Shown one piece after another: positions 3,544 through 63,254 of a stretch of 64,000 nucleotides of DNA (positions within the stretch are counted from its first letter, which is position 1; each line of letters begins with the position of its first letter). A program made the translations under genes and the position numbers. Origin of the DNA: an uncultured Acetatifactor sp. (GTDB taxonomy: Bacteria; Bacillota; Clostridia; Lachnospirales; Lachnospiraceae); the NCBI GenBank assembly GCA_964529395.1, contig CAZGVI010000013.1:5147-69146 (forward strand), written 5' to 3'. The notes beneath the pieces were generated by a model. It did no database searches and was not told the origin of the DNA. It worked only from the letters and a program-made list of their open reading frames with translations.

Positions 3544-3579
3544 CCTTTTCACAGAAAATTCATGCTCTGCAATGTATTT

Positions 3580-3804
3580 TTATCTTCCTGCCGCGGCAAG
3601 TTCTTCCCTGGTGCAATTCGTTATCCTGCTGATAGAAGTGTCATCCAGTCCTGCCTTGGCCATCTGTCGGATGATTCGAAGCCTTTCCTCCCGCTTTCCT
3701 TCTTGTCTTCCCTCTCGCTTGCCTTCACGTTTTCCCTCTCGTTTTCCCTCACGTCTCCCCTCTCGCCGTTCTTCTCTCATCAGATCGTCAAAGGCTTTAC
3801 ACAT
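3580..3804 (-). CDS. Putative internally initiated small protein (RpnS-type intragenic antitoxin), copy A, 74 aa
   Basis: In-frame ATG at 3804 (MCKAFDDL..) preceded by AAGGAGG (3813-3819). Confidence 0.6.
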   Translation of the reverse strand: MCKAFDDLMREERREGRREGKREGKREGKREGRQEGKREERLRIIRQMAKAGLDDTSISRITNCTREELAAAGR

Positions 3805-4533
3805 GGGCAGTTCCTCCTTTTCTATCTTTTTCAACAATCTGGCTATATGCAGATGCCTTGCGATCACGCGCTCCGTCTCGGGACAGAGATGCCGGAACTC
3901 TTCGGTTTGAAACAGGGCCTTCAGCTTTCCTCTGTCCCTCCGGCATTGCATGGCCTTAAAAAACTCCTTCAGATCCGTATTATAATTGTCGGGATTGACA
4001 AAATCCGCCTCTATCAAGGGGAAATCATAGTCTCGAAGATTATCCCCCAACAATATTTGGGATTCCGCCGACATCCGAAACATCTGCGACAGTTTGCGTC
4101 TGCCTTCCCAGCGCCCCTCCTTCAAAAACAAAACCACCGTGACCATAGGAAAAAGGTACTCACTTTCTTTTATCCTGCTCTTCTTTTCACGATAATTTTT
4201 ATAATTCTTTTGATCCTTATGCTTTTGGCCGATCTCCCGCATCTGATATTCATACTCGCAGGCGTCGTATGTCATGATCCGCTCAGGCATCCCATAATCT
4301 GATTCCGTCTCAATCTCAATACCGTAACAAATATTTTGCCGCATATCTACCATCAGCACATCCCTCTCCATCTCGCTGTACGCATTGGAGAGTGCCGGAT
4401 ATTTCCTGTTCTGTAGCACAAGATCCCCCGGCCTGAGTACTTTTTCCCCGTGATAGAGCGCAATGTTCACAAGCTCCGCAAACCTTTCGCAATCGGAAAA
4501 ATACGGCCTGTCCGCAATATCTATTTTTCCCAT
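3580..4533 (-). CDS. Rpn/YhgA-like recombination-promoting nuclease (PD-(D/E)XK 'putative transposase'), copy A
   Basis: 317 aa; ERDVLM..GIEIET..D.GMPERIMTYD nuclease core, PMVTVVLF strand, C-terminal MCKAFDDL + (REGK)n + helical tail typical of Rpn family. Confidence 0.85.
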   Translation of the reverse strand: MGKIDIADRPYFSDCERFAELVNIALYHGEKVLRPGDLVLQNRKYPALSNAYSEMERDVLMVDMRQNICYGIEIETESDYGMPERIMTYDACEYEYQMREIGQKHKDQKNYKNYREKKSRIKESEYLFPMVTVVLFLKEGRWEGRRKLSQMFRMSAESQILLGDNLRDYDFPLIEADFVNPDNYNTDLKEFFKAMQCRRDRGKLKALFQTEEFRHLCPETERVIARHLHIARLLKKIEKEELPMCKAFDDLMREERREGRREGKREGKREGKREGRQEGKREERLRIIRQMAKAGLDDTSISRITNCTREELAAAGR

Positions 4534-4718
4534 ATACCCCTTTCCGGCCGTAAGGATACCGCATATGCATACTTTGCCACGGAACCGCTTTCAACCATAT
4601 TTGTATTGTCTGTGTGAAATATGGCTGATAACGCCGGAATCAGGGCGAGGCCGCTCCTGATAGGTCACCCTGGTCTGAGCAGGGTACAGAATTTCACAGA
4701 GAAGATTTTCTTCTATTT
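4534..4718 (-). ncRNA. Conserved structured 5' leader of Rpn copy A (candidate cis-regulatory or ncRNA element)
   Basis: About 185 nt between promoter and ATG, nearly identical to the copy B leader; multibranch stem-loop can be drawn by hand. Confidence 0.4.
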
Positions 4719-4724
4719 GAGGTT

Positions 4725-4753
4725 ATTATAAGAACTCTGATAAATATTGTCAA
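4725..4753 (-). promoter_or_regulatory. Perfect-consensus sigma-A promoter of Rpn copy A
   Basis: TTGACA (4748-4753) - 17 bp - TATAAT (4725-4730). Confidence 0.85.
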
Positions 4754-4796
4754 TTAAAAAATATGATTTCCTATATTCTTTATTCATTAAATACAC

Positions 4797-4825
4797 TTGT
4801 ATTTCGCTCCCCCTTTCCCTATAAT
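4797..4825 (+). promoter_or_regulatory. sigma-A promoter of the ORF at 4876
   Basis: TTGTAT - 17 bp - TATAAT. Confidence 0.6.
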
Positions 4826-4875
4826 TATCCATTATAAGATAGTCCATTATTGATTATAGAAAGAGGGAAAAGATT

Positions 4876-5304
4876 ATGACGGAAAAGCCTGAATATCTAT
4901 ACCATGGAAGTCAATATAAACTGGATATACTCATACCGCAGCAGGCCGCCGGTGAACAGAATATAGATTCTCTGAAAGCAATCTACGCTGCCGGAACCAT
5001 GGATGAAGTGATACCGTTCGCCCTGCCAATCCGCTGGTATCCGGATACCCCGGAGGGAAAGAGGAATTTCGAGTGCAGCAACGGAAAGGTTCTGTTAAAG
5101 TATGGTTCTTTAGACCCTGACGGCGTGGGATATGTATATAAGGTTCGTGCGGATTCCTTTGAAAAAATAGACGGATGGCAGTGGGTTTCACAGGAGAAAT
5201 GCTTGCCTGTAGAAATAATGGAAATAAAAGTGGCGGATTACCTTGACCGAGTGGAGTTTTCAGAAGAGGCGCAAAAAATCCAACAGCATTTGTTTCCTGA
5301 TTAA
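4876..5304 (+). CDS. Hypothetical protein, possible ADP-ribosyltransferase-like (Arr-type) fold
   Basis: 142 aa with RBS GAGGG; YLYHGS, AIYAA, GYVYKV and WQWVS motifs in the spacing of H-Y-E/Q clade ART proteins. Confidence 0.6.
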   Translation: MTEKPEYLYHGSQYKLDILIPQQAAGEQNIDSLKAIYAAGTMDEVIPFALPIRWYPDTPEGKRNFECSNGKVLLKYGSLDPDGVGYVYKVRADSFEKIDGWQWVSQEKCLPVEIMEIKVADYLDRVEFSEEAQKIQQHLFPD

Positions 5305-5317
5305 CAAAACAACTCGA

Positions 5318-5363
5318 AATAAGCCGGGAAACATCGCAAAAATGCGTCGTTCCCCGGCTTATT
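5318..5363. terminator. Stem-loop between convergent genes (probable bidirectional terminator)
   Basis: aataagccggg ... cccggcttatt inverted repeat. Confidence 0.6.
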
Positions 5364-5389
5364 ATACAGTACTACAGCCACTTCATAAA

Positions 5390-7723
5390 TCAGCAGTTTA
5401 CCACCATATGGGCAGCTTTGGGCGTTACCAGCGTGTCATTGCCTTCTATGCGGATATCCGCGCCGTCAGCGGACACGGCCTGCACATTTACCAGACGCAC
5501 CGTATAGGGCTTAACCGCCTCCACATCCAGAGTGACGGCTCCTGCATGGCGGGACGCCTTGATCGTCAGCGCCGCCTGCCTGTCCATGCCATAGACGGTC
5601 CGCTCCGTACTGGCTCCATTATGCAGCTCGTAGATCCGCAGTTCCACTCCGTCGGCGTAATCATAATCCGGCCTGTCGTCCCTGGCGCCCAGGGCGATAA
5701 TGGAACATTCCTTCACCATCATGGGCAGGCTGAAATAGTCATACTCAGCGCTGTACCACTTGCCGCCCTCCTGCACCTGACCGGTAAGAAAATCCGTCCA
5801 TGTGCCCTCGGGCAGATAGTACTCGCCGATCCCCTCCTCGTTGAAGATGGGAGCCACCAACAGGCTGTCGCCCAACATGTACTGCTTGTCCAGATAACTG
5901 CAGTTCTTATCAGAGGTATATTCCAACACCATGCTGCGCATGGTGGGGATGCCGGTGCGGTTGGTATAGATGGAAGTCTCATATAAATAAGGCATCAGCC
6001 GGGCTTTTTGCCGGGTGAAGAACCGGCACACATCCACCGCCTCCTCGTCATAGACCCAGGGCACCCGGTAAGAAGTGCTGCCATGGAGACGGCTGTGGGA
6101 GGACAGCAGGCCAAACGCCACCCACCTCTTGTATACATCCGGCGTGGAAGTGTGCTCAAAGCCGCCGATATCATGAGCCCAGAAACCAAAGCCGCTCATC
6201 AGCAGACTAAGACCTCCTCTGAGACTCTCCTCCATGGACTCATAATCGGACCAGCAATCGCCGCCCCAGTGTACCGGGAATTTCTGGCCTCCCACGGTGG
6301 CGGAACGGGCAAACAATACCGCCTCTCCCTTGCCCCGCTTTCTCTCCAGCAGCTCATAAACGCATTTATTGTACAGGTAAGTATAGTAATTGTGCATCTT
6401 CTTGGGGTCAGAGCCGTCAAAATATGCCGCGTCGGTGGGAATCCTCTCGCCGAAATCGGTCTTAAAGCAATCCACGCCCATGTCCAGCAGCACTTCCAGC
6501 TTGTCCTGGAACCATTTCCAGGCTTCCGGGTTGGTAAAGTCTACGATCGCCATGCCCGGCTGCCACATATCCCACTGATAGACCTGACCGTTAGGCCGCT
6601 TGATGAAATACCCTTTCTCCATGCCCTCCCTGAACAGATAGGACTCCTGGCCGATGTAGGAGTTGATCCACACGCAGATATTCAACCCTTTTTCCTTGAT
6701 GCGCCGCAGCAGTCCCTCCGGGTCGGGGAATATCCTCTCATCCCACAGAAAATCGGACCAATGAAATTCCTTCATCCAGCAGCAGTCAAAATGAAAGGTG
6801 CGCAGAGGAATGCCCCGGTCCAGCATACCGTCGATAAAGCTCATGACCGTATTCTCGTCGTAACTGGTGGTGAAGGAGGTGGACAGCCACAGTCCGAATG
6901 TCCAGGGCGCAGGCAGGGAAGGCTTGCCCGTGATATCCGTATAGGCTACCAGCACATCCTTCATGGCAGGCCCGTCAAACAGCATATAATCCAGATATCC
7001 GCCCTCCACGGAGAATTCCGCCCGGGTCACCATCTCCGTGCCAAGCTCCATAGATACGTTCTCCGGGTGGTTGATCAGCACGCCATACCCCTTATTGGAG
7101 ATATAAAAAGGAATGTTTTTGTATGCCTGCTCGGTGCTGGTGCCTCCGTCCGCATTCCAGATATCAATGCTCTGGCCGTTCTTGACAAAGGGAGTGAAAT
7201 GCTCGCCTGTGCCGTAAAGCAGTTCTCCCACGCCCAGAGACAACTGCTGGCGGATATAGGTGTCCGTGTTGTCCCCCCGGTCATAGTACTCGCCCTTCCA
7301 GTCGGTCTTCATCAGCGCCAGGTCTTTTCCGGTGCTGCGGGTCAGCAGCCTGCCGTCTCTCTTATAAGTCATAGACCAGGGTTTTTTTGTGATCTCCAGG
7401 GACAGATTGCCGCTCTTAACGGCGATCAGTTCGTCCGTCTCGGTCACATCCAGCGGGCACTCCTGCAGATTCAGTTCAAAGGCGGGCTCACATGTCACCG
7501 CGCCCAGATGATGATAGGTCTGCACCCGCAGTACATTCACTCTGGGGGAGGTGATCCTGACCGTCAGATTGATGCCGCCCAAAGTAGCTCCCTTGCTGTT
7601 AATATGGCCTGTGGGAGCGCAGATGCTTACCTCCGTATCCGTCTTTTTGATAAAATAGGCCTCCGTAGGCGCAAAACACCCGCAGCCCTCCTTTTGTAAC
7701 CAACATCCGTTACTGAATTTCAT
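5390..7723 (-). CDS. yicI: GH31 alpha-xylosidase
   Basis: 777 aa; MKFSNGCWL start, FKTDFGE nucleophile motif, WAHDIGGF acid/base motif. Confidence 0.93.
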   Translation of the reverse strand: MKFSNGCWLQKEGCGCFAPTEAYFIKKTDTEVSICAPTGHINSKGATLGGINLTVRITSPRVNVLRVQTYHHLGAVTCEPAFELNLQECPLDVTETDELIAVKSGNLSLEITKKPWSMTYKRDGRLLTRSTGKDLALMKTDWKGEYYDRGDNTDTYIRQQLSLGVGELLYGTGEHFTPFVKNGQSIDIWNADGGTSTEQAYKNIPFYISNKGYGVLINHPENVSMELGTEMVTRAEFSVEGGYLDYMLFDGPAMKDVLVAYTDITGKPSLPAPWTFGLWLSTSFTTSYDENTVMSFIDGMLDRGIPLRTFHFDCCWMKEFHWSDFLWDERIFPDPEGLLRRIKEKGLNICVWINSYIGQESYLFREGMEKGYFIKRPNGQVYQWDMWQPGMAIVDFTNPEAWKWFQDKLEVLLDMGVDCFKTDFGERIPTDAAYFDGSDPKKMHNYYTYLYNKCVYELLERKRGKGEAVLFARSATVGGQKFPVHWGGDCWSDYESMEESLRGGLSLLMSGFGFWAHDIGGFEHTSTPDVYKRWVAFGLLSSHSRLHGSTSYRVPWVYDEEAVDVCRFFTRQKARLMPYLYETSIYTNRTGIPTMRSMVLEYTSDKNCSYLDKQYMLGDSLLVAPIFNEEGIGEYYLPEGTWTDFLTGQVQEGGKWYSAEYDYFSLPMMVKECSIIALGARDDRPDYDYADGVELRIYELHNGASTERTVYGMDRQAALTIKASRHAGAVTLDVEAVKPYTVRLVNVQAVSADGADIRIEGNDTLVTPKAAHMVVNC

Positions 7724-7821
7724 CGCATATCCTCCATTCCTATATATTTACCCGCCGATGCAGATCCGCAGGTACTTTTTCATATACCTTTAGCATACCA
7801 GAGAAACGCATAAATTGCACG

Positions 7822-7866
7822 AAAAAAATAAATAAAAAGGAATAGACCCCATAGAATCTATTCCTT
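7822..7866 (-). terminator. Rho-independent terminator after the GH43 gene
   Basis: aaggaataga/tctattcctt stem followed by a U-rich tract on the minus strand. Confidence 0.7.
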
Positions 7867-7905
7867 CCGATATCCGATGATTTTGCAGGCAGAAATCCGC
7901 CTGTG

Positions 7906-8880
7906 TCAAACCTGTTTCCGATAGGCAAATATCGGCCTGTCGTTTTCGTCCCACTCCACTTTCATCAGCATGGCGTGACGGTTTGGATCCGCCAGAGAAT
8001 CGCCGATGATCTCCTCATAAGTGCGGGCATGGTAGACGCAGATATCGTTGCCCTCCCTGTCCTTGGTAAAACTGTTGTGGCCGGGGCCGTATATACCCTT
8101 TTCCGCATCCGTAGCCAGCACAGGGTAACGCTCCTTGGTCCAGCTCCTGGGGTCTAACAGATCCGCGTCCTCCGTGGTGCTGAGCATGCCCATGCAATAG
8201 CAGGCGCCGGTGGCGCTGGCGGAATACGTCAGATAGATATGCCCGTTATGTTTTACCGCCGCAGGCCCCTCATTGACCCAAAAGCCGATCCGCTCCCAGT
8301 CATAGTCAGGCGTGGTCAGCAGCACCTGCACCGTAGCCAGCTTTGTACCCGATTCCATCCGGGCGATATACAGGTTGGATATCTGGTCTCCCACGCTGAC
8401 CTTCTCCGCCCAAATAAAATAATACGCACCCTTATTTTCCAGAACCGTGGCATCCAGGGAAAACGCGCGAAAAGAAAATCTGTCCTCGTCGACGCACTGC
8501 ATCTGGCCTCTCTCTATCCAGGCGTCCGTCATGGGATCCTGGCCGCCGCACTCCAATACATAGGGACGGATATGCCACCAATTGTCTTTGTCATCCCCGG
8601 CAAAATAAATATACCACTTTCCAAACAGATAATGTATCTCCGGCGCCCATATGTGATCGCTCATAGGGCCGCTCTCATGGCGGGTCCACACTGTGATCTC
8701 CTCCGCTTGGGCCAGTCCTTCTATAGTATCCGCATGGCGCAGGATGATCCTGTCATAGGCCGGAACGGAGGCGGTAAAATAATAGCTGCCGTCCGGCGCC
8801 TGGCCTACAAACGGATCTGCCCGCTGGAGGATAAAGGGCTTATTGTATTCCGTAATGGGTCCGTTGATTTTCTGTTCCAT
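7906..8880 (-). CDS. GH43 alpha-L-arabinofuranosidase
   Basis: QRADP, WAPEIH, SLDATV and VNEGP motifs; likely start MEQKING at 8880 (track start 8904). Confidence 0.9.
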   Translation of the reverse strand: MEQKINGPITEYNKPFILQRADPFVGQAPDGSYYFTASVPAYDRIILRHADTIEGLAQAEEITVWTRHESGPMSDHIWAPEIHYLFGKWYIYFAGDDKDNWWHIRPYVLECGGQDPMTDAWIERGQMQCVDEDRFSFRAFSLDATVLENKGAYYFIWAEKVSVGDQISNLYIARMESGTKLATVQVLLTTPDYDWERIGFWVNEGPAAVKHNGHIYLTYSASATGACYCMGMLSTTEDADLLDPRSWTKERYPVLATDAEKGIYGPGHNSFTKDREGNDICVYHARTYEEIIGDSLADPNRHAMLMKVEWDENDRPIFAYRKQV

Positions 8881-8951
8881 ACATTCCTCTCTCCTACATA
8901 TCACAGGCTATGCCTTCAGGCTTAATTTGACTCTACGCATTCACATTGCGG

Positions 8952-10454
8952 TCATATCTCCACCGCCAAATGCAGCACACTGCATGCCGGGATCGTAAAC
9001 TTCAGGTTCTGTCCCGCGATCTCCACCCGGTCAAACCGCTCTGTGTGTACCGCGTCAGGGTCTTCAAAGGTATTGTGCGCGTGCATCTCTCCGGTAAGGA
9101 TCGTGCCCTCCACTCCTTTGATGGCGGTTTCGGTGAATACCGCGTCTATATCATAACTCTCTGTCACGGACAGATTGTTCAAAGTCACATGGATCCTGCC
9201 GTCCTTGCCCAGAGTCACAGACTCGTGAAGGTTGGGCACTTTCCCGTCCTCGCCGCCGATCTCCTGAGTCTCCACATAACTCTCCAACAGCTCCGCGTCC
9301 TGATGGTACTTGTACATGTTGAACACATGATAAGTGGGCGTCTTGATCATCTTCTCGCCCTCGGTCAGGATCACGGACTGCAGCACATTCACCAGCTGGG
9401 CAATATTGGCCATCTTCACACGGTCGCAATGTTTGTTGAAAATATTCAGGTTGATGCCTGCCACCAGCGCGTCTCTCATGGTGTTCTGCTGATACAGGAA
9501 ACCGGGGTTTGTACCGGGCTCCACATCGTACCAGGTACCCCACTCGTCTATGATAAGTCCGATCTTTTTCTCGGGATCATACCTGTCCATGATCGCGCCG
9601 TGGCCCTTGATCAGATCCTCCATGTGCAGAGTCTTCCTCAATGTCCTGTAATAGCTCTTCTCGTCAAAATCCAGCGCGCTGCCCTTATGGCTCCAGTCGT
9701 CATTGGGAAGCGTATAATAGTGCAGGGACAGGCCGTTCATAAATCCATGGGCATGCTCCGCATGGTCGTGGGTAGTCTTCAATACGCCCTCGGTCCAATA
9801 GTAGTCGCCCGCATTGGCGCCGCAGCACACCTTGAATATCTCCTCGCCCTTCTTATAGTTCCGCACATATGTCTGATATCTGCGGTACAGGTTTCCGTAA
9901 TACTCAGGGGTCATATTACCGCCGCAGCCCCAGTTCTCGTTGCCCACGCCGAAATAGTCCACCTTCCAGCTCTCGGGATGGCCGTTTTTTGCCCGCAGAT
10001 CCGCCATGGGGGAGACGCCCTCAAAAGTCATATACTCCACCCACTCGCTCATCTCCTGCACCGTCCCGCTGCCCACATTGCCGTTGATATATGTCTTACA
10101 GCCCAACTGGCGGCACAGTTCCATGAACTCATGCGTACCGAAACTGTTGTCCTCCACCACTCCACCCCAATGGGTGTTGATCATCTTTTTGCGGCTCTCC
10201 TTGGGGCCGATGCCGTCCATCCAATGATACTCGTCGGCAAAGCAGCCACCCGGCCAGCGCAGTACCGGAATCTGCATTTCTTTAAGGGCCTCCACCACGT
10301 CGTTGCGGATACCGCCCGTATTTGGGATGTCGGAATCTTCGCCCACATATAGCCCCTCATAAATGCATCTTCCCAGATGCTCGGAAAAGTGTCCCTGTAA
10401 CTCCGGATTAACATGACCTAGCGGATGCTTGGGGTTTACGTACAATTTTGCCAT
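8952..10454 (-). CDS. abfA: GH51 alpha-L-arabinofuranosidase (cytoplasmic)
   Basis: 500 aa; [42 protein letters not shown]. Confidence 0.93.
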
Positions 10455-10519
10455 AGTTTAGTCCTCGCTTTATGTTTTATTTTTTACTAAAATAGTATAC
10501 TTTCCCCTTAACTTCTTTA

Positions 10520-10548
10520 ATAGTAGTATGAAATACAATCAATGTCAA
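10520..10548 (-). promoter_or_regulatory. sigma-A promoter of the abfA-GH43 operon
   Basis: TTGACA (10543-10548) - 17 bp - TACTAT (10520-10525). Confidence 0.7.
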
Positions 10549-10663
10549 CACAATCCGTAAAATAAGTTTCACAGTTTTTAGAATTATTTTTTAGGCATAT
10601 TTACCTTGTGTATAAATGGTCCAAATTTTTGTAAAATCTACATCATTTTGAACTGCTATAGCA

Positions 10664-10691
10664 TTGACTTTACTTTATGAAATGTTATAAT
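10664..10691 (+). promoter_or_regulatory. sigma-A promoter of the ArsR-family regulator
   Basis: TTGACT - 16 bp - TATAAT. Confidence 0.6.
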
Positions 10692-10743
10692 AAAAATAGA
10701 AATTGAGCAAAAGAAGTCTGGATTTTTGAGAAAGAGGGTTTTT

Positions 10744-11670
10744 ATGTTATATTTTCAATCTATCGGGGAAGCAGAAACAGTTTTTAAGGCCTTGAGCACT
10801 CCCATGCGCCTGAAGATCATGGAGATGATCTATAAAGACGATAAGCTGAGCATGAATGATCTGGCGGAAGCTCTGGGGCTGACCAACGGTGCCATCTCCA
10901 TGCACGTGAGCAAACTGGAGGAGGCCGGTCTGGTAAAGATCCGCACCACCTCCGGCAAGAGAGGGACCATGAAGATCATTCGTCCCCGATACGACCGTCT
11001 GATAATCGATCTTGCGCCTATAAAGGATGTACGGCACTGCTATACGGACGATATCCAGGTCGGTTACTACACCACCTGCAGCGTATCTCCCACCTGCGGA
11101 CTGGCTACCAGCAAGGAGATCATCGGTTCCCTGGACGACGCCCGGGTATTCTCTTTTCCGGAAAGATTTAAAGCGGGCATCCTGTGGTTTGGCAGCGGCT
11201 ATGTGGAGTACAATCTGCCCAATCACCTACAGGCCGGCCAAACCCTGACAGAACTGCAGATATCCTTTGAGATCTCTTCGGAATGTCCGGAATACAATGA
11301 GGACTACCCCTCGGATATCCATTTTTCCATCAATGGGATCAGTCTGGGCATGTGGGTAAGCCCCGGCGATTTCGGCGCACGCAAGGGATATCTCTGCCCC
11401 GCCTGGTGGCCCGAGCTGCTGAATCAATACGGTCTGTTAAAAACTCTGATCATCAATAACGAAGGCTGCTTTATCGACGGAACCAACAAGATCTCTGACG
11501 TGACGATTCAGGATCTTGACCTCAATTATAACAGCTATATCAGTTTCCGTTTTGAAGTGCCCAAGGACACTGCCAACGTGGGAGGATGCACTTTGTTTGG
11601 GGAAGATTTCGGAGACTATAACCAGGCTATCAAGGTGAAAGCCTATTACGAAGAAGAGAATGAAGGGTAG
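10744..11670 (+). CDS. ArsR-family HTH transcriptional regulator (probable arabinan-locus regulator)
   Basis: N-terminal wHTH (VFKALSTPMRLKIM..LAEALGLTNGAISMHVSKLEEAGLV) plus long C-terminal domain; divergent from abfA; ATG at 10744 after GAGG. Confidence 0.85.
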   Translation: MLYFQSIGEAETVFKALSTPMRLKIMEMIYKDDKLSMNDLAEALGLTNGAISMHVSKLEEAGLVKIRTTSGKRGTMKIIRPRYDRLIIDLAPIKDVRHCYTDDIQVGYYTTCSVSPTCGLATSKEIIGSLDDARVFSFPERFKAGILWFGSGYVEYNLPNHLQAGQTLTELQISFEISSECPEYNEDYPSDIHFSINGISLGMWVSPGDFGARKGYLCPAWWPELLNQYGLLKTLIINNEGCFIDGTNKISDVTIQDLDLNYNSYISFRFEVPKDTANVGGCTLFGEDFGDYNQAIKVKAYYEEENEG

Positions 11671-11713
11671 ACGCCCTTTTTATGGACGTTTCTGTATATA
11701 CGTATGACATGCA

Positions 11714-13249
11714 TTATTTCACTTCGTATATTGCATCCTTCATATACCAATTCGCAACCAATCCGCTTATCATCCCCGAATCGTCGTAGGACATTTCTGT
11801 ATCGCTGTTTATCCACAGGGGATAGGGATGATTGCTATACGGCTGCACATAGACCACCTTTTCTTCATTTCTGTACAATTGCAGACGCTGTAGATATTCA
11901 TGCCAATATAAATTTCCCTCGCCATCCGCGATCAGCCTGTATGCCCCATAATTTACAAAAGTAGCCTTTTTACTCACATCATCCAATCTGATGAAACTGA
12001 TGATGCCTGTCAGCAAAGCTATTAACAATACCACTGTCCATCTCATGACATTTTTTCCGTATCTGGGAATCATCGCCCTGGCCGCTTTTACTCTGTGAAC
12101 CAGCCATCCACACCAATAGGCCTCCAGCAGCACCAAACACAGCAGTAAAAACATTTTGCAGATGTTTTGATTTCTTGACAAAGGTTCTTCGCCCAAAGCA
12201 TAAAATCCCGGCGCAAACATAGATGCATAGAGGCAATATGTCGCCCCCGTCACCAGCAGCGGGCAGCGAAAGGAGTATTTGCTGTTATCAGCAGCTCTCA
12301 AAAACATGGGCAGCAGCAAGATCAATATCACGATCACATATATGTTGATCCAGGCAGTCATCTGTGAGAACGAATAAGCAAAACTCTTCCCTATCGTGCC
12401 TATAATACTTCCCCGCTGAAAATTTGCCTGTCTCACCGCATTGCCCGGGGCTAATACATTTACCAGGAATCCTGACTCCCCGATCAAAAAAGGAATCGCA
12501 AACCATAGATAGGTCTTCCTTCCCTGAACTTTCCATAATATTACTGCCAGAATCCCCAATAACACCAATATCTCCGCCGTTAACAGCGTCGTTGAAAAAT
12601 TACCTCCGGCCGCCATGAACGCCGCCCCTGTACATATTGCCAGTTCAATACACCACCAAATACTCTTACCCCGGTTGTGAAATATTCTCTCAAAGCTTAA
12701 CAGGGCAAACCCCGCCATCAAATTGACGAAACCCTGCATAAACACATAGTGGACAGCGCCATTATACCAATATAGACCAGAGGCCGGTGTATACATAAAC
12801 GCGCACTGCATAACGCATGACGCCATCACTGCGGACATACAGGTGTAGCCATCCAGCTCCATCCATCTCTTTAAAAGTGCATGCATAAAAACCATTGTGG
12901 AAATACATGTCATACCGATCATCATATAAGGTACGGCATGTGCATATTGTTCTCCAAACGCCATGGGTGAAATTGAAAAAAAGAAAACAGAGCTATATGT
13001 TCCCTGCCAGCTTTTATAGAATTCCGCGACTTTAGAAAACGCCGTCTTTATAACCTCTATCAGATTATGAGTGTTCAGCCATGTACAATGTACATGAAAC
13101 GCAAACCAGTAGTCGTCTCCTGCCCCATGATTGTATCGCCCTATATACAGCAGAGGTACTATGAACCACAAAAAGCCTAATACAGCAAAACAACAGAATA
13201 CTTTTCGAGTTAAGAATTTCCTCTCCAATTTGTCAATCCAATTCTTCAT
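11714..13249 (-). CDS. Multi-pass membrane protein, DUF6056/GT-C glycosyltransferase-like
   Basis: 511 aa, many hydrophobic segments, DDY motif in the loop after TM1, APGN motif; visibly more AT-rich than neighbours. Confidence 0.6.
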   Translation of the reverse strand: MKNWIDKLERKFLTRKVFCCFAVLGFLWFIVPLLYIGRYNHGAGDDYWFAFHVHCTWLNTHNLIEVIKTAFSKVAEFYKSWQGTYSSVFFFSISPMAFGEQYAHAVPYMMIGMTCISTMVFMHALLKRWMELDGYTCMSAVMASCVMQCAFMYTPASGLYWYNGAVHYVFMQGFVNLMAGFALLSFERIFHNRGKSIWWCIELAICTGAAFMAAGGNFSTTLLTAEILVLLGILAVILWKVQGRKTYLWFAIPFLIGESGFLVNVLAPGNAVRQANFQRGSIIGTIGKSFAYSFSQMTAWINIYVIVILILLLPMFLRAADNSKYSFRCPLLVTGATYCLYASMFAPGFYALGEEPLSRNQNICKMFLLLCLVLLEAYWCGWLVHRVKAARAMIPRYGKNVMRWTVVLLIALLTGIISFIRLDDVSKKATFVNYGAYRLIADGEGNLYWHEYLQRLQLYRNEEKVVYVQPYSNHPYPLWINSDTEMSYDDSGMISGLVANWYMKDAIYEVK

Positions 13250-13392
13250 AAAAATATGATCGTTTCACAAAGCACAAAATAAATATGAAACGGCTCCCTT
13301 CGCATTATAGTCCATCATTTGTACTATTATATCCGCTTTGTTTCTTTGTGTCTACCTCTCACCCCAAATTTTACTTTTTTTACATTTTTTAG

Positions 13393-13421
13393 TTGACAAT
13401 ATTTATCGGAGTTCCTATAAT
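13393..13421 (+). promoter_or_regulatory. Perfect-consensus sigma-A promoter of Rpn copy B
   Basis: TTGACA (13393-13398) - 17 bp - TATAAT (13416-13421). Confidence 0.85.
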
Positions 13422-13427
13422 GATTTC

Positions 13428-13612
13428 AAATAGATGAAAATCTTCTCTGTGAAATTCTGTACCCTGCTCAGACCAGGGTAACCTATCAGGAGCGGCCTCG
13501 CCCTGATTCCGGCGTTATCAGCCATATTTCACACAGACAATACAAATATGGTTGAAAGCGGTTCCGTGGCAAAGTATGCATATGCGGTATCCTTACGGCC
13601 GGAAAGGGGTAT
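13428..13612 (+). ncRNA. Conserved structured 5' leader of Rpn copy B
   Basis: Outer stem 13448-13455/13526-13533 enclosing hairpins 13460-13480, 13485-13507 and 13511-13523. Confidence 0.4.
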
Positions 13613-14542
13613 ATGGGAAAAATAGATATTGCGGACAGGCCGTATTTTTCCGATTGCGAAAGGTTTGCGGAGCTTGTGAACATTGCGCTCTATCACGGGG
13701 AAAAAGTACTCAGGCCGGGGGATCTTGTGCTACAGAACAGGAAATATCCGGCACTCTCCAATGCGTACAGCGAGATGGAGAGGGATGTGCTGATGGTAGA
13801 TATGCGGCAAAATATTTGTTACGGTATTGAGATTGAGACGGAATCAGATTATGGGATGCCTGAGCGGATCATGACATACGACGCCTGCGAGTATGAATAT
13901 CAGATGCGGGAGATCGGCCAAAAGCATAAGGATCAAAAGAATTATAAAAATTATCGTGAAAAGAAGAGCAGGATAAAAGAAAGTGAGTACCTTTTTCCTA
14001 TGGTCACGGTGGTTTTGTTTTTGAAGGAGGGGCGCTGGGAAGGCAGACGCAAACTGTCGCAGATGTTTCGGATGTCGGCGGAATCCCAAATATTGTTGGG
14101 GGATAATCTGCGAGACTATGATTTCCCCTTGATAGAGGCGGATTTTGTCAATCCTGACAACTATGATACGGATCTGAAGGAGTTTTTTAAGGCCATGCAA
14201 TGCCGGAGGGACAGAGAAAAGCTGAAGACCTTGTTTCAAACCGAAGAGTTTCGGCATCTCTGTCCCGAGACGGAGCGCGTGATCGCAAGGCATCTGCATG
14301 TAGCCAGATTGTTAAAAAAGATAGAAAAGGAGGAACTGCCCATGTGTAAAGCTTTTGACGATCTGATGAGAGAAGAACGACGAGAAGGAAGACGTGAGGG
14401 AAAACGAGAGGGAAGACAAGAGGGAAAGCGGGAGGAAAGACTTCGGATCATCCGACAGATGGCCAAGGCAGGACTGGATGACACTTCTATCAGCAGAATA
14501 ACCAATTGCACCAGGGAGGAACTTGCCGCGGCGGGAAGGTAA
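13613..14542 (+). CDS. Rpn/YhgA-like recombination-promoting nuclease, copy B
   Basis: 309 aa; differs from copy A by 4 substitutions and two fewer REGK repeats. Confidence 0.85.
   Translation: MGKIDIADRPYFSDCERFAELVNIALYHGEKVLRPGDLVLQNRKYPALSNAYSEMERDVLMVDMRQNICYGIEIETESDYGMPERIMTYDACEYEYQMREIGQKHKDQKNYKNYREKKSRIKESEYLFPMVTVVLFLKEGRWEGRRKLSQMFRMSAESQILLGDNLRDYDFPLIEADFVNPDNYDTDLKEFFKAMQCRRDREKLKTLFQTEEFRHLCPETERVIARHLHVARLLKKIEKEELPMCKAFDDLMREERREGRREGKREGRQEGKREERLRIIRQMAKAGLDDTSISRITNCTREELAAAGR
14342..14542 (+). CDS. Putative internally initiated small protein (RpnS-type intragenic antitoxin), copy B, 66 aa
   Basis: AAGGAGG at 14327-14333, in-frame ATG at 14342 (MCKAFDDL..). Confidence 0.6.
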   Translation: MCKAFDDLMREERREGRREGKREGRQEGKREERLRIIRQMAKAGLDDTSISRITNCTREELAAAGR

Positions 14543-14581
14543 AAATACATTGCCTGTTAGCCCCTCTGAAATAAATCTATT

Positions 14582-62368: not shown

Positions 62369-63254
62369 AACGGTTAAACTGAATCCGGCTATATACATAT
62401 TTTCCCTCGATCTCTTCGACTTCCTCCCACTCGATCTCCCTGTATGCCATGCTTTCGTTTTCTTCGACATAATAGCCGGGATAGTCATTTTCTGTAGAAT
62501 AATAAATACTGCCATTATAAAAATGGACGGCCTCTATCAACTTCATCTCTGTTCCCTCATAAGTATAATAGATATCCACCGAGTCCGCCGCTCCGTCAGA
62601 GCCCTCGTTGGCTATACTGCCGTCTTCACAGAGATAATAACGGTTGCGCTCTCCCCCCGAAAATACATGTACCAGCTCTCCGTCCGCAATGGTATAAAGG
62701 TCATATATTACACCATTCCATGCGCCGCTGCCGTTTTCTCCAAAGATCAGCTCTTCTATTCCATTCCCGTCCAGATCAAGAAGAGTATATCCCGCTGATT
62801 CATAAATTTTATAGAATGCATATATATAACACAAGGAAAAATTGAAATTATCCTCTATTTCATCTTCAAAATAGTCTTCACGGCCAATTAACGCATTCTG
62901 CGCTTTCTCGATCAGCGCATCATATTCTGAATATCCAGTGCTGATCTCGGGAATCACTATATTCTCCGGTTCAGAACTGTCTGCACTCTCCGGCTCGGAA
63001 CTGTCCGCACTCTCCGGCTCTGCGTCGTCTGTACCTTCCGGCTCAGAACTGTCTGCACTCTCCGGCTCTGCGTCGTCTGTGCTTTCCGGTTCGGAACTGT
63101 CTGCACTCTCCGCTGCGGCGCTGTCTGTACTCTCAGCTGCGGCATCCTGCCTGTCCGCGTTAGAGCAAGCGCTCAATGCCGCGCAGGCGACGACAGTTAT
63201 TGCCGCCGCCAGAAACATGGCTTTTTTTAAAAATGCAGATATAGATCTATTCAT
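62343..63254 (-). CDS. Hypothetical lipoprotein with 8-aa tandem-repeat stalk
   Basis: Lipobox ALSAC; (ESADSSEP)-type repeats; DLDGNGIEEL Ca-binding-like motif; start at 63254 after GGAG. Confidence 0.8.
   Translation of the reverse strand: MNRSISAFLKKAMFLAAAITVVACAALSACSNADRQDAAAESTDSAAAESADSSEPESTDDAEPESADSSEPEGTDDAEPESADSSEPESADSSEPENIVIPEISTGYSEYDALIEKAQNALIGREDYFEDEIEDNFNFSLCYIYAFYKIYESAGYTLLDLDGNGIEELIFGENGSGAWNGVIYDLYTIADGELVHVFSGGERNRYYLCEDGSIANEGSDGAADSVDIYYTYEGTEMKLIEAVHFYNGSIYYSTENDYPGYYVEENESMAYREIEWEEVEEIEGKYVYSRIQFNRFIEILQEK
62967..63134 (-). repeat. 24-bp coding tandem repeat x7
   Basis: ESTDSAAA ESADSSEP ESTDDAEP ESADSSEP EGTDDAEP ESADSSEP ESADSSEP. Confidence 0.9.

Follow-up and report, generated by a model that had tools for sequence, protein, structure and literature searches.

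In Escherichia coli, Rpn loci yield a toxic long protein, RpnL, and a separately translated RpnS, the specificity of which is determined by repeat number (Zhong et al. 2023; PMC10327210). The RpnL:RpnS ratio varies for a cause that is unknown, and the authors took this variation as a hint of additional regulation (PMC10327210). Here, we analyzed a 64,000-nucleotide stretch of DNA from an uncultured Acetatifactor sp. (Lachnospiraceae; GenBank assembly GCA_964529395.1, contig CAZGVI010000013.1, positions 5,147 to 69,146 of the forward strand; hereafter the window), in which two copies of an Rpn-like gene are each preceded by an ~185-nt leader. These genes share with E. coli Rpn/RpnS (PMC10327210) a predicted RpnS-like domain near the C-terminus, an internal start signal that is conserved, and hypervariability of the C-terminus, where the number of tetrapeptide repeats differs between the paralogs of the window. 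They depart from E. coli Rpn in a putative N-terminal nuclease domain that is too divergent for the Pfam and NCBIfam cut-offs, and in the structured leader, which is not described in the E. coli paper (PMC10327210); we found no description of such a leader elsewhere in the literature either, other motif surveys included.

Structured 5' untranslated regions (5' UTRs) with an alternative pairing of the ribosome-binding site are of a well-known kind. The mRNAs of type I toxins (hok, tisB, zorO, and the bsrG/fst type) are held inert through long-range pairing near the ribosome-binding site, and hok mRNA has competing upstream and downstream complementary boxes. A structured leader confined to one protein family is the usual signature of feedback by the encoded protein. 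What is new here is the leader family itself and its link to an Rpn-type gene-within-gene toxin-antitoxin system. The leader is a real, uncatalogued, conserved structured RNA element of ~100 gut Lachnospiraceae loci. It probably acts in cis, as a structured 5'-UTR RNA that gates the start of translation of the full-length Rpn-like nuclease, which is presumably toxic.

A leader conserved upstream of Rpn-like genes in Lachnospiraceae

In copy A, on the forward strand, a sigma-70/SigA-type consensus promoter (TTGACA, 13393-13398; 17-nt spacer; TATAAT, 13416-13421) is followed by the ~185-nt leader and the ATG of an Rpn-like (YhgA-like) gene (13613-14542, 309 aa), and the leader coordinates agree with the sequence. 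From the position of the promoter, transcription is predicted to start near 13428-13429. A sequence-only reading of the window, made before our analysis, had called this promoter perfect, and it indeed scores 12/12. The second copy (copy B unit, 4762-3569, reverse strand) is inverted and 97% identical to copy A over 1058 nt. Its leader (4718-4534, reverse strand) has the same parts, with position B = 18146 - position A, and precedes a gene of 317 aa (4533-3580, reverse strand). The two leaders differ at two positions in all. The sequence-only reading judged the leader to be as conserved as the coding sequence (CDS); this holds within the window but is not informative there, since copies A and B also have the first 497 nt of their CDS in common without a difference. 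The real evidence for constraint is the set of ~100 homologous loci rather than the two window copies.

The 309-aa protein of copy A has 261 relatives at E <= 0.001, the named ones from Lachnospiraceae or Acetatifactor, and a scan of species-representative genomes yielded 53 loci whose proteins are 43-81% identical, with the leader upstream in nearly all. A covariance model (R1), built on a MAFFT alignment of 48 leaders, found 2 matches in the 64-kb window, that on the copy B leader spanning 4528-4721 at 134.4 bits, and 100 matches, each in a locus of its own and scoring 54-143 bits, in 607 kb of related loci. Every genuine R1 instance sits just 5' of an Rpn-like open reading frame (ORF) or of its truncated or decayed remnant. 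A 20-base core pattern, scanned through metagenome contigs blind to the gene, picked out 53 loci. Those that are complete have an Rpn-like ORF beginning 66-94 nt downstream; three were chance matches without any other leader feature, and the remainder run off the contig end or carry truncated or internally deleted genes. The same leader was sought in viral contigs, phage records, and plasmid records, where nothing was found.

Nucleotide conservation of the leader exceeds that of the CDS. Thirty-three leader columns are invariant, 61/166 have a majority base at a frequency of at least 0.9, and one run of 15 nt has every column at or above this value; in the CDS of the same loci, the longest such run is 6 nt, and at third codon positions the majority base has a mean frequency of 0.55. 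Where the proteins share only 50-67% identity, stretches of 27-29 nt that overlap a core, GATTCCGGCGTTATCAGCCATATTTCAC, are still 100% identical, and the core stays near-invariant across loci though protein identity drops to 43-50%.

Covariation and strand specificity of a four-way junction

The 5' portion of the leader, ~105 nt, accommodates a 5'-terminal hairpin (P0) plus a four-way-junction domain (P1-P4, 13449-13532, forward strand). The sequence-only reading had drawn this junction by hand, with an outer stem of TGTGAAAT (13448-55) and ATTTCACA (13526-33), and all of its hairpin coordinates agree with the sequence. The helices are P1 (GUGAAAU, 13449-55, with AUUUCAC, 13526-32), P2 (TACCCTG, 13460-66, with CAGGGTA, 13474-80; an RUUC loop in the family), P3 (ATCAGG-GCG with CGC-CCTGAT, 13485-13507), and P4 (GGC, 13511-13, with GCC, 13521-23). 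The domain folds by itself: the 92-nt core (13445-13536) taken alone gave exactly the four-way junction at -32.2 kcal/mol (z = -4.06), and 0/200 shuffles were as good. Between 13448 and 13533, the sole difference between the copies is A13480 versus G, by which a U-A pair becomes U.G and is kept, as the sequence-only reading had seen.

We measured pairing in two alignments, the structure-blind MAFFT alignment of 48 leaders and a model-based alignment of 81 distinct sequences. In the former, a nested model (P1-P4 plus UGGCUG/CAGCCG) was 94.7% paired, versus 29-46% with slid partners; over both alignments, 94.7-95.6% of cells were paired, versus 27-49% on slides of 1-3 columns. The covariation score was reached by 0/500 shuffles. 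Both-sided changes were seen at each of the four P2 pairs and at three P3 pairs in the 81-sequence alignment (for example, UA 46, CG 22, and UG 7 at P2 pair 43:69, and UA 46 and CG 30 at P3 pair 79:161), and the pairs with the highest mutual information were those of P2 and P3. Hence, P2 and P3 of the hand-drawn junction are supported by covariation. P1 is 97.5% paired; its first six pairs depart via G.U only, and the seventh is unpaired in 13 sequences. P4, a helix of 3 bp, never varies and for this reason has no independent covariation support. Its nucleotides are shared with two longer alternative helices, and a competing fold is likely at this place.

In the 81-sequence alignment, G.U cells numbered 185 and A.C cells 6; it is therefore the sense strand of the gene that folds. 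This bias bears on an idea raised by the sequence-only reading, that the element is a DNA structure used for mobility. In such a DNA-level account, the inverted repeats (TTCCGGC...GCCGGAA and CAGCCAT...ATGGCTG) would be repressor operators or single-stranded DNA mobility hairpins. Classical type II toxin-antitoxin loci are autoregulated at operators, and the sharp boundaries shared by units A and B, which begin shortly before the -35 box and end 11 nt beyond the stop codon, suggest block movement or conversion. However, pairing-preserving covariation in P2, P3, and the variable hairpin P5 (described below) has no role in duplex DNA, the excess of G.U over A.C and the embedded Shine-Dalgarno sequence argue for RNA, and the element sits downstream of the promoter. 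No terminal (inverted) repeats or target duplications were seen at the unit boundaries, and the blank searches of viral contigs, phages, and plasmids also led us to reject a mobile or phage-borne element. We regard a DNA-level function as extremely improbable.

Two further observations concern the junction domain. First, P0 (AGAuGAA-AAUC-UUCUCU, 13432-13448, forward strand) was seen in the full-leader fold, and most homologs, though not all, have a hairpin at its position, with unrelated sequences and a mean z of -1.2; it may be a 5'-end stabiliser. Second, the second-highest mutual information falls on columns 34 and 164 of alignment A3 (window positions 13458 and 13509; U/C in 54 sequences versus A/U in 12), which are a J1/2 nucleotide and the third base of UUCCGGC and belong to no modelled helix. 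This could be a tertiary contact or a clade signal; the mutual-information search for tertiary contacts gave nothing convincing beyond this one unexplained pair.

Two alternative pairing schemes at the Shine-Dalgarno sequence

The sequence-only reading captured the 5' half of the element but missed the 3' half, which holds an A/U-rich linker, the strand AUGGCUG, the variable hairpin P5, and CAGCCGGAA, which adjoins the Shine-Dalgarno sequence. On the forward strand, the single-stranded linker (13533-13547; 12-17 nt in homologs) is 81% A+U, versus 54% over the leader as a whole, and shows no sequence conservation. It leads into a switching strand (13548-13554), AUGGUUG in the window and AUGGCUG in the family consensus, that has two possible partners, CAGCCAU upstream (helix S-b) or CGGCCG downstream (helix P5ext). 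The P5 interior (13555-13595), a predicted hairpin variable in sequence and length, spans 15-59 nt in homologs, with a mean z of -1.9 and z < -1 in 78%. The next segment, CGGCCGGAAAGGGG (13596-13609), packs together the 3' strand of P5ext (13596-13601), which can pair with the switching strand, the 3' strand of S-a (GCCGGAA, 13598-13604), which can pair with UUCCGGC, and the 8-nt Shine-Dalgarno sequence GAAAGGGG (13602-13609), which overlaps the S-a strand. In the family, the leader ends in (A/G)CAGCCGGAAAGGAG, then 3-5 nt, then AUG; within this end lies GAAAGGAG, which we take to be an 8-nt complement of the 16S 3' end. The 5' strands of S-a (UUCCGGC, 13507-13513) and S-b (CAGCCAU, 13519-13525) lie together with the 3' strand of P1 in a near-invariant 28-nt core, GAUUCCGGCGUUAUCAGCCAUAUUUCAC (13505-13532, forward strand), the near-invariant segment of the family being UUCCGGCG-N4-5-UCAGCCAU-AUUUCAC.

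CAGCC is present twice, GGCUG once, and CCGG three times in the leader, and as a result of these repeats AUGGCUG, GGC...CAGCC, and CAGCCGG each have two possible partners. We defined fold 1 as P1-P4 plus P5ext, and fold 2 as S-a plus S-b with P2, P3, and the P5 interior retained. RNAalifold proposed P5ext (UGGCUG/CAGCCG) independently. In the 81 distinct leaders, S-a is 98.9% paired (variant cells: 29 one-sided compatible, mostly G.U-compatible; 1 both-sided; 6 unpaired) and S-b is 97.8% paired; across homologs the two alternative schemes are each about 96-99% paired, with nearly invariant strands. The nucleotides that never vary are those with two partners, and the helices with a single role (P2, P3, and the P5 interior) covary freely, which is the pattern that a switch predicts. 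Given that the nucleotides of P4 can also join longer alternative helices, the four-way junction probably represents only part of the structure, as one of two states in competition. Single leaders lean both ways: only L016 favours P5ext over S-a/S-b, with both-sided changes at two neighbouring P5ext pairs and new mismatches in S-a and S-b, and L050 and L068 point in the opposite direction.

Folding energies were calculated for both states. The minimum-energy fold of the full copy A leader differs from the junction (z = -2.75): P3 is kept, P2 is disrupted, and UUCCGGC/GCCGGAA and CAGCCAU/AUGGUUG are paired, reaching over a long range to the Shine-Dalgarno region. Constrained folding of 67 distinct leaders favoured fold 2 by a median of 2.8 kcal/mol (minimum energy) or 5.4 kcal/mol (ensemble), and fold 1 was lower in energy in 17/67. 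Over these leaders, the predicted probability that the Shine-Dalgarno sequence is unpaired was 0.82 in fold 1, 0.30 in fold 2, and 0.43 without constraint; for copy A, the corresponding values were 0.84, 0.14, and 0.20.

Several points weigh against a switch that gates translation. The two folds directly differ by just 3 of the 8 Shine-Dalgarno nucleotides, and the larger gap in accessibility comes from nearest-neighbour energy models, which do not take pseudoknots into account. The near-invariance of their strands leaves S-a, S-b, P4, and P1 without true compensatory support, and phylogenetic inertia is a possible source of the G.U pattern in these helices. Eight public RNA-labelled runs, examined as contigs, span the promoter and cover the flanks evenly, and are thus indistinguishable from DNA. 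A single gene family carries the element, which is atypical for metabolite riboswitches. Lastly, the strands of P1 and S-b are adjacent and non-overlapping in most homologs, and therefore the fold-2 helices and P1 could coexist in one H-type pseudoknot with no switching.

This last geometry underlies a static alternative, in which one pseudoknotted fold (S-a, S-b, P2, P3, and P5, with P1 stacked on S-b) serves as a repressor or processing substrate that throttles translation, and activation, if any, would come via RNase cleavage in the A/U linker, freeing the ribosome-binding site of the downstream mRNA. It has its likeness in type I toxin mRNAs, with constitutive throttling beneath a very strong promoter, and a consensus promoter does call for a strong damper. 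CAGCCAU-AUUUCAC is one uninterrupted strand, and the partners of its two halves add up to a perfect 14-nt complement, which would let P1 and S-b stack; the 12-17-nt, 81% A/U linker would suit a pseudoknot loop or an RNase Y/E-type site; and the occluded fold is the predicted ground state. However, a static fold leaves unexplained both the duplication of CAGCC beside the Shine-Dalgarno sequence and the compensatory P5ext changes in L016. In addition, S-b extends into AUUU in the window copy and some relatives, which excludes P1. We consider a static fold unlikely, if credible, and favour two alternating states.

A predicted internal translation start within the downstream gene

The copy A protein had no match in Pfam, and PF04754 matched 13/26 family members weakly (best E = 2.7e-4). 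TIGR01784 (Rpn family) matched residues 234-305 of copy A with E = 8e-8, at 32 bits versus a curated cut-off of 52. The top fold matches of an AlphaFold model (predicted local distance difference test, pLDDT, 82) were mostly PD-(D/E)XK nucleases, all weak (E >= 0.07). The C-terminus of the model superposed on E. coli RpnA-S (7th0) with a template-modelling (TM) score of 0.75 and a root-mean-square deviation of 1.4 A at 36% identity (profile E = 0.085). Profile and model together point to a C-terminal RpnS-like domain in the copy A protein.

An internal Shine-Dalgarno sequence, AAGGAGG (14327-14333, forward strand; an equivalent site lies in copy B on the reverse strand), is followed by an in-frame ATG (Met244, 14342, forward strand) that would give an RpnS-like protein of ~66 aa. 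A GGAGG-type Shine-Dalgarno sequence stands 7-9 nt before an in-frame start codon in 43/43 complete homologs. In the two genes that have lost this Met, the codon is TTG or GTG and is therefore still a start. At the level of sequence, these signals argue for an internal translation start for a small RpnS-like protein. The ribosome-binding site of this short form lies 730 nt downstream, and the leader ends at the long-form site only.

Between copies A and B there are 22 substitutions and a 24-nt insertion, confined to the 3' 433 nt of the CDS; copy B thereby carries 8 additional aa, two extra REGK-type tetrapeptide repeats, in its C-terminal part. This divergence looks like diversifying change or gene conversion limited to the antitoxin-like C-terminal domain.

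Internally deleted copies recur among the homologs (L066, L067, L071, L074, L078, L085, L093, and L106). They retain the leader and the C-terminal, RpnS-encoding part, and the nuclease core is gone; such copies may be orphan antitoxin remnants. In five public runs, we also observed a deletion variant in which 13629 is joined to 14166 with ACA between. A terminator-like hairpin with a T-run (13630-13654, forward strand) lies within codons 6-14 of the CDS; it overlaps a conserved RPYFSD peptide motif and therefore may be coincidental.

Units A and B form divergently oriented inverted repeats that span 3569-14553 and flank an 8.6-kb segment. This segment codes for GH31, GH43, and GH51-type glycoside hydrolases, an ArsR/MarR-like regulator, and a membrane protein, and recombination between the two units could invert it.

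Comparison with known RNA classes

The sequence-only reading had suspected an unrecognised structured RNA and could match the leader to no riboswitch, tRNA, or ribozyme. Both statements stood up: the element is absent from Rfam 15, is conserved at ~100 loci, and folds on the sense strand. A search of the whole window with Rfam 15 at gathering thresholds gave no match to the leader. With permissive filters (E <= 10), the interval 13300-13700 gave only a chance match to Lacto-rpoB on the opposite strand (E = 9.3), so that no family matches the leader on its own strand. The sequence-only reading had named a self-cleaving RNA among its options; known ribozyme models did not match the leader. A tRNA or tRNA-like element was rejected, as ARAGORN found nothing in 13300-13700. 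Elsewhere in the window, a T-box leader (RF00230, 53008-53224, forward strand, 96.1 bits) is the only gathering-level Rfam match.

Other candidate identities were likewise rejected. An upstream ORF or leader peptide starting at AUGGCUG does not fit, since its frame relative to the main AUG is 0, 1, or 2 and its length is not conserved; the reading frame also has internal stops in some copies, and UUG stands in two loci. A ToxI-like type III antitoxin RNA was set aside because the leader, by eye, is a single non-repetitive unit and has no tandem direct repeats. The UYCCGG-repeat motif (NAR 2024; PMC11109978) is one long stem with dozens of copies per genome and therefore distinct from the Rpn leader. 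In a direct-repeat search of the window with a 60-nt minimum length, the sole family found lies at 62941-63156, where seven in-register 72-nt copies at 24-nt spacing amount to a 24-nt tandem repeat (TCCGGCTC.GAACTGTC.GCACTC-like) that probably encodes a repetitive protein segment.

HEARO/IscB provides a precedent for a structured RNA encoded 5' of a nuclease ORF. The leader could by analogy be a trans-acting scaffold or guide RNA for the nuclease, in the manner of IscB and TnpB omega RNAs or IS110 bridge RNAs; the sequence-only reading had listed a guide or partner RNA as one possibility. A structured RNA does lie directly 5' of a nuclease ORF and is inherited together with it as a unit, and the fold matches of the protein include RNA-cleaving PD-(D/E)XK enzymes, at weak E-values. 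The variable segment gives this idea no support, however: for the P5 interior, which was the part tested, the longest exact match averaged 9.2 nt to its own locus versus 9.0 nt to other loci, and a guide or bridge RNA was rejected on this ground. The core does not change from locus to locus even as protein identity falls to 43%, contrary to the usual behaviour of ribonucleoproteins that co-evolve; the element has its 3' end arranged around a Shine-Dalgarno sequence; and the viral, phage, and plasmid collections held nothing. A trans-acting partner RNA is thus very unlikely.

Three kinds of cis-acting leader were closer. Like translational riboswitches and other 5'-UTR switches, the leader has a multi-helix junction, covarying stems, and highly conserved nucleotides, and P2, P3, and the conserved P1 would make up a structured aptamer with covariation. 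It would also resemble translational riboswitches in its predicted pairings, which appear to exclude each other and of which one would cover the ribosome-binding site in part. It is unlike riboswitches in having no Rfam 15 match, in belonging to one gene family and not to a metabolic regulon, and in that its conserved nucleotides are mostly in two-partner helices and not in junction loops. An association with genes of ligand metabolism or transport was not found; the element accompanies the Rpn-like family or its remnants only, which argues against a classical metabolite riboswitch and is more typical of autogenous control or of intrinsic folding of a toxin mRNA.

The likeness to type I toxin mRNAs lies in long-range pairing near the ribosome-binding site, and activation by processing is plausible. 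Here, however, the gene product is a putative nuclease of 309 aa versus a small membrane peptide, and the antitoxin would be a protein that this ORF encodes internally; neither an antisense RNA nor a conserved antisense promoter was seen. With autogenous leaders (ribosomal-protein leaders, the rne 5' UTR, T4 gene 32, and regA targets), the element has in common its confinement to one protein family. It differs from them in that the RNA core is invariant while the protein diverges, and Rpn proteins are not known to bind RNA.

A model for the control of toxin translation

A promoter scoring 12/12 is present in 69/78 distinct homologous upstream regions, with its -10 box ending 25-35 nt 5' of P1. 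Such a consensus promoter would drive strong transcription, and its place before a presumably toxic nuclease implies post-transcriptional control. As the leader has no terminator, this control would act on translation. The sequence-only reading had listed damping of toxin translation as one proposal among several, and it is the one that best fits the anatomy of the leader. Upstream of the -35 box, by ~10-35 nt, many loci (L011-L046) conserve a motif, AACG-N6-AACGTT(T)ATAAA, that is absent from the window copies and could be an UP element or an operator.

We suggest the following scheme for a leader that gates translation. The 5' hairpin and the four-way junction P1-P4 would form in the first ~105 nt. 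In the ON state, AUGGCUG would pair with CAGCCG beside the Shine-Dalgarno sequence and close the P5 hairpin, leaving the ribosome-binding site free. In the OFF state, AUGGCUG would invade the junction and pair with CAGCCAU, and UUCCGGC would pair with GCCGGAA and bury the 5' part of the ribosome-binding site. The OFF fold is the predicted more stable ground state, and the junction fold would be the permissive state. The balance might be set by a factor that stabilises or destroys the junction, candidates being a small molecule, the Rpn proteins themselves, or RNase cleavage in the A/U linker. Since this mRNA also carries a separate, internal ribosome-binding site for the RpnS-like protein, the leader would determine how much toxin is made relative to antitoxin. 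The recurrence of the promoter (69/78) and of the internal start (43/43) suggests that the leader gates only the long toxic form.

A more specific version, which we hold to be rather doubtful, makes the leader an orphan RNA sensor: a signal that arises when a phage infects or DNA is damaged, be it a small molecule, a nucleotide messenger, or a phage factor, would bind to the junction and shift the mRNA into the open fold, whereupon translation of RpnL would outrun that of RpnS. If true, this would be an RNA-level trigger for an abortive-infection toxin. We know of no such trigger described so far for Rpn or for any protein toxin with an intragenic antitoxin.

The leader adds to the catalogues a candidate RNA motif that is represented by ~80 distinct sequences and has two stems that covary and a near-invariant core of 28 nt. 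Its target gene is unusual, a presumed nuclease of the toxin-antitoxin or defence type instead of a metabolic gene. The covariance model flags these genes, and their frequent truncated remnants, in Lachnospiraceae, where the protein escapes Pfam. For the control and release of Rpn toxins, the leader family offers a concrete, testable mechanism. If the leader gates translation as proposed, one strongly transcribed mRNA would carry two ribosome entry sites, of which that of the toxin alone would lie behind an RNA switch.

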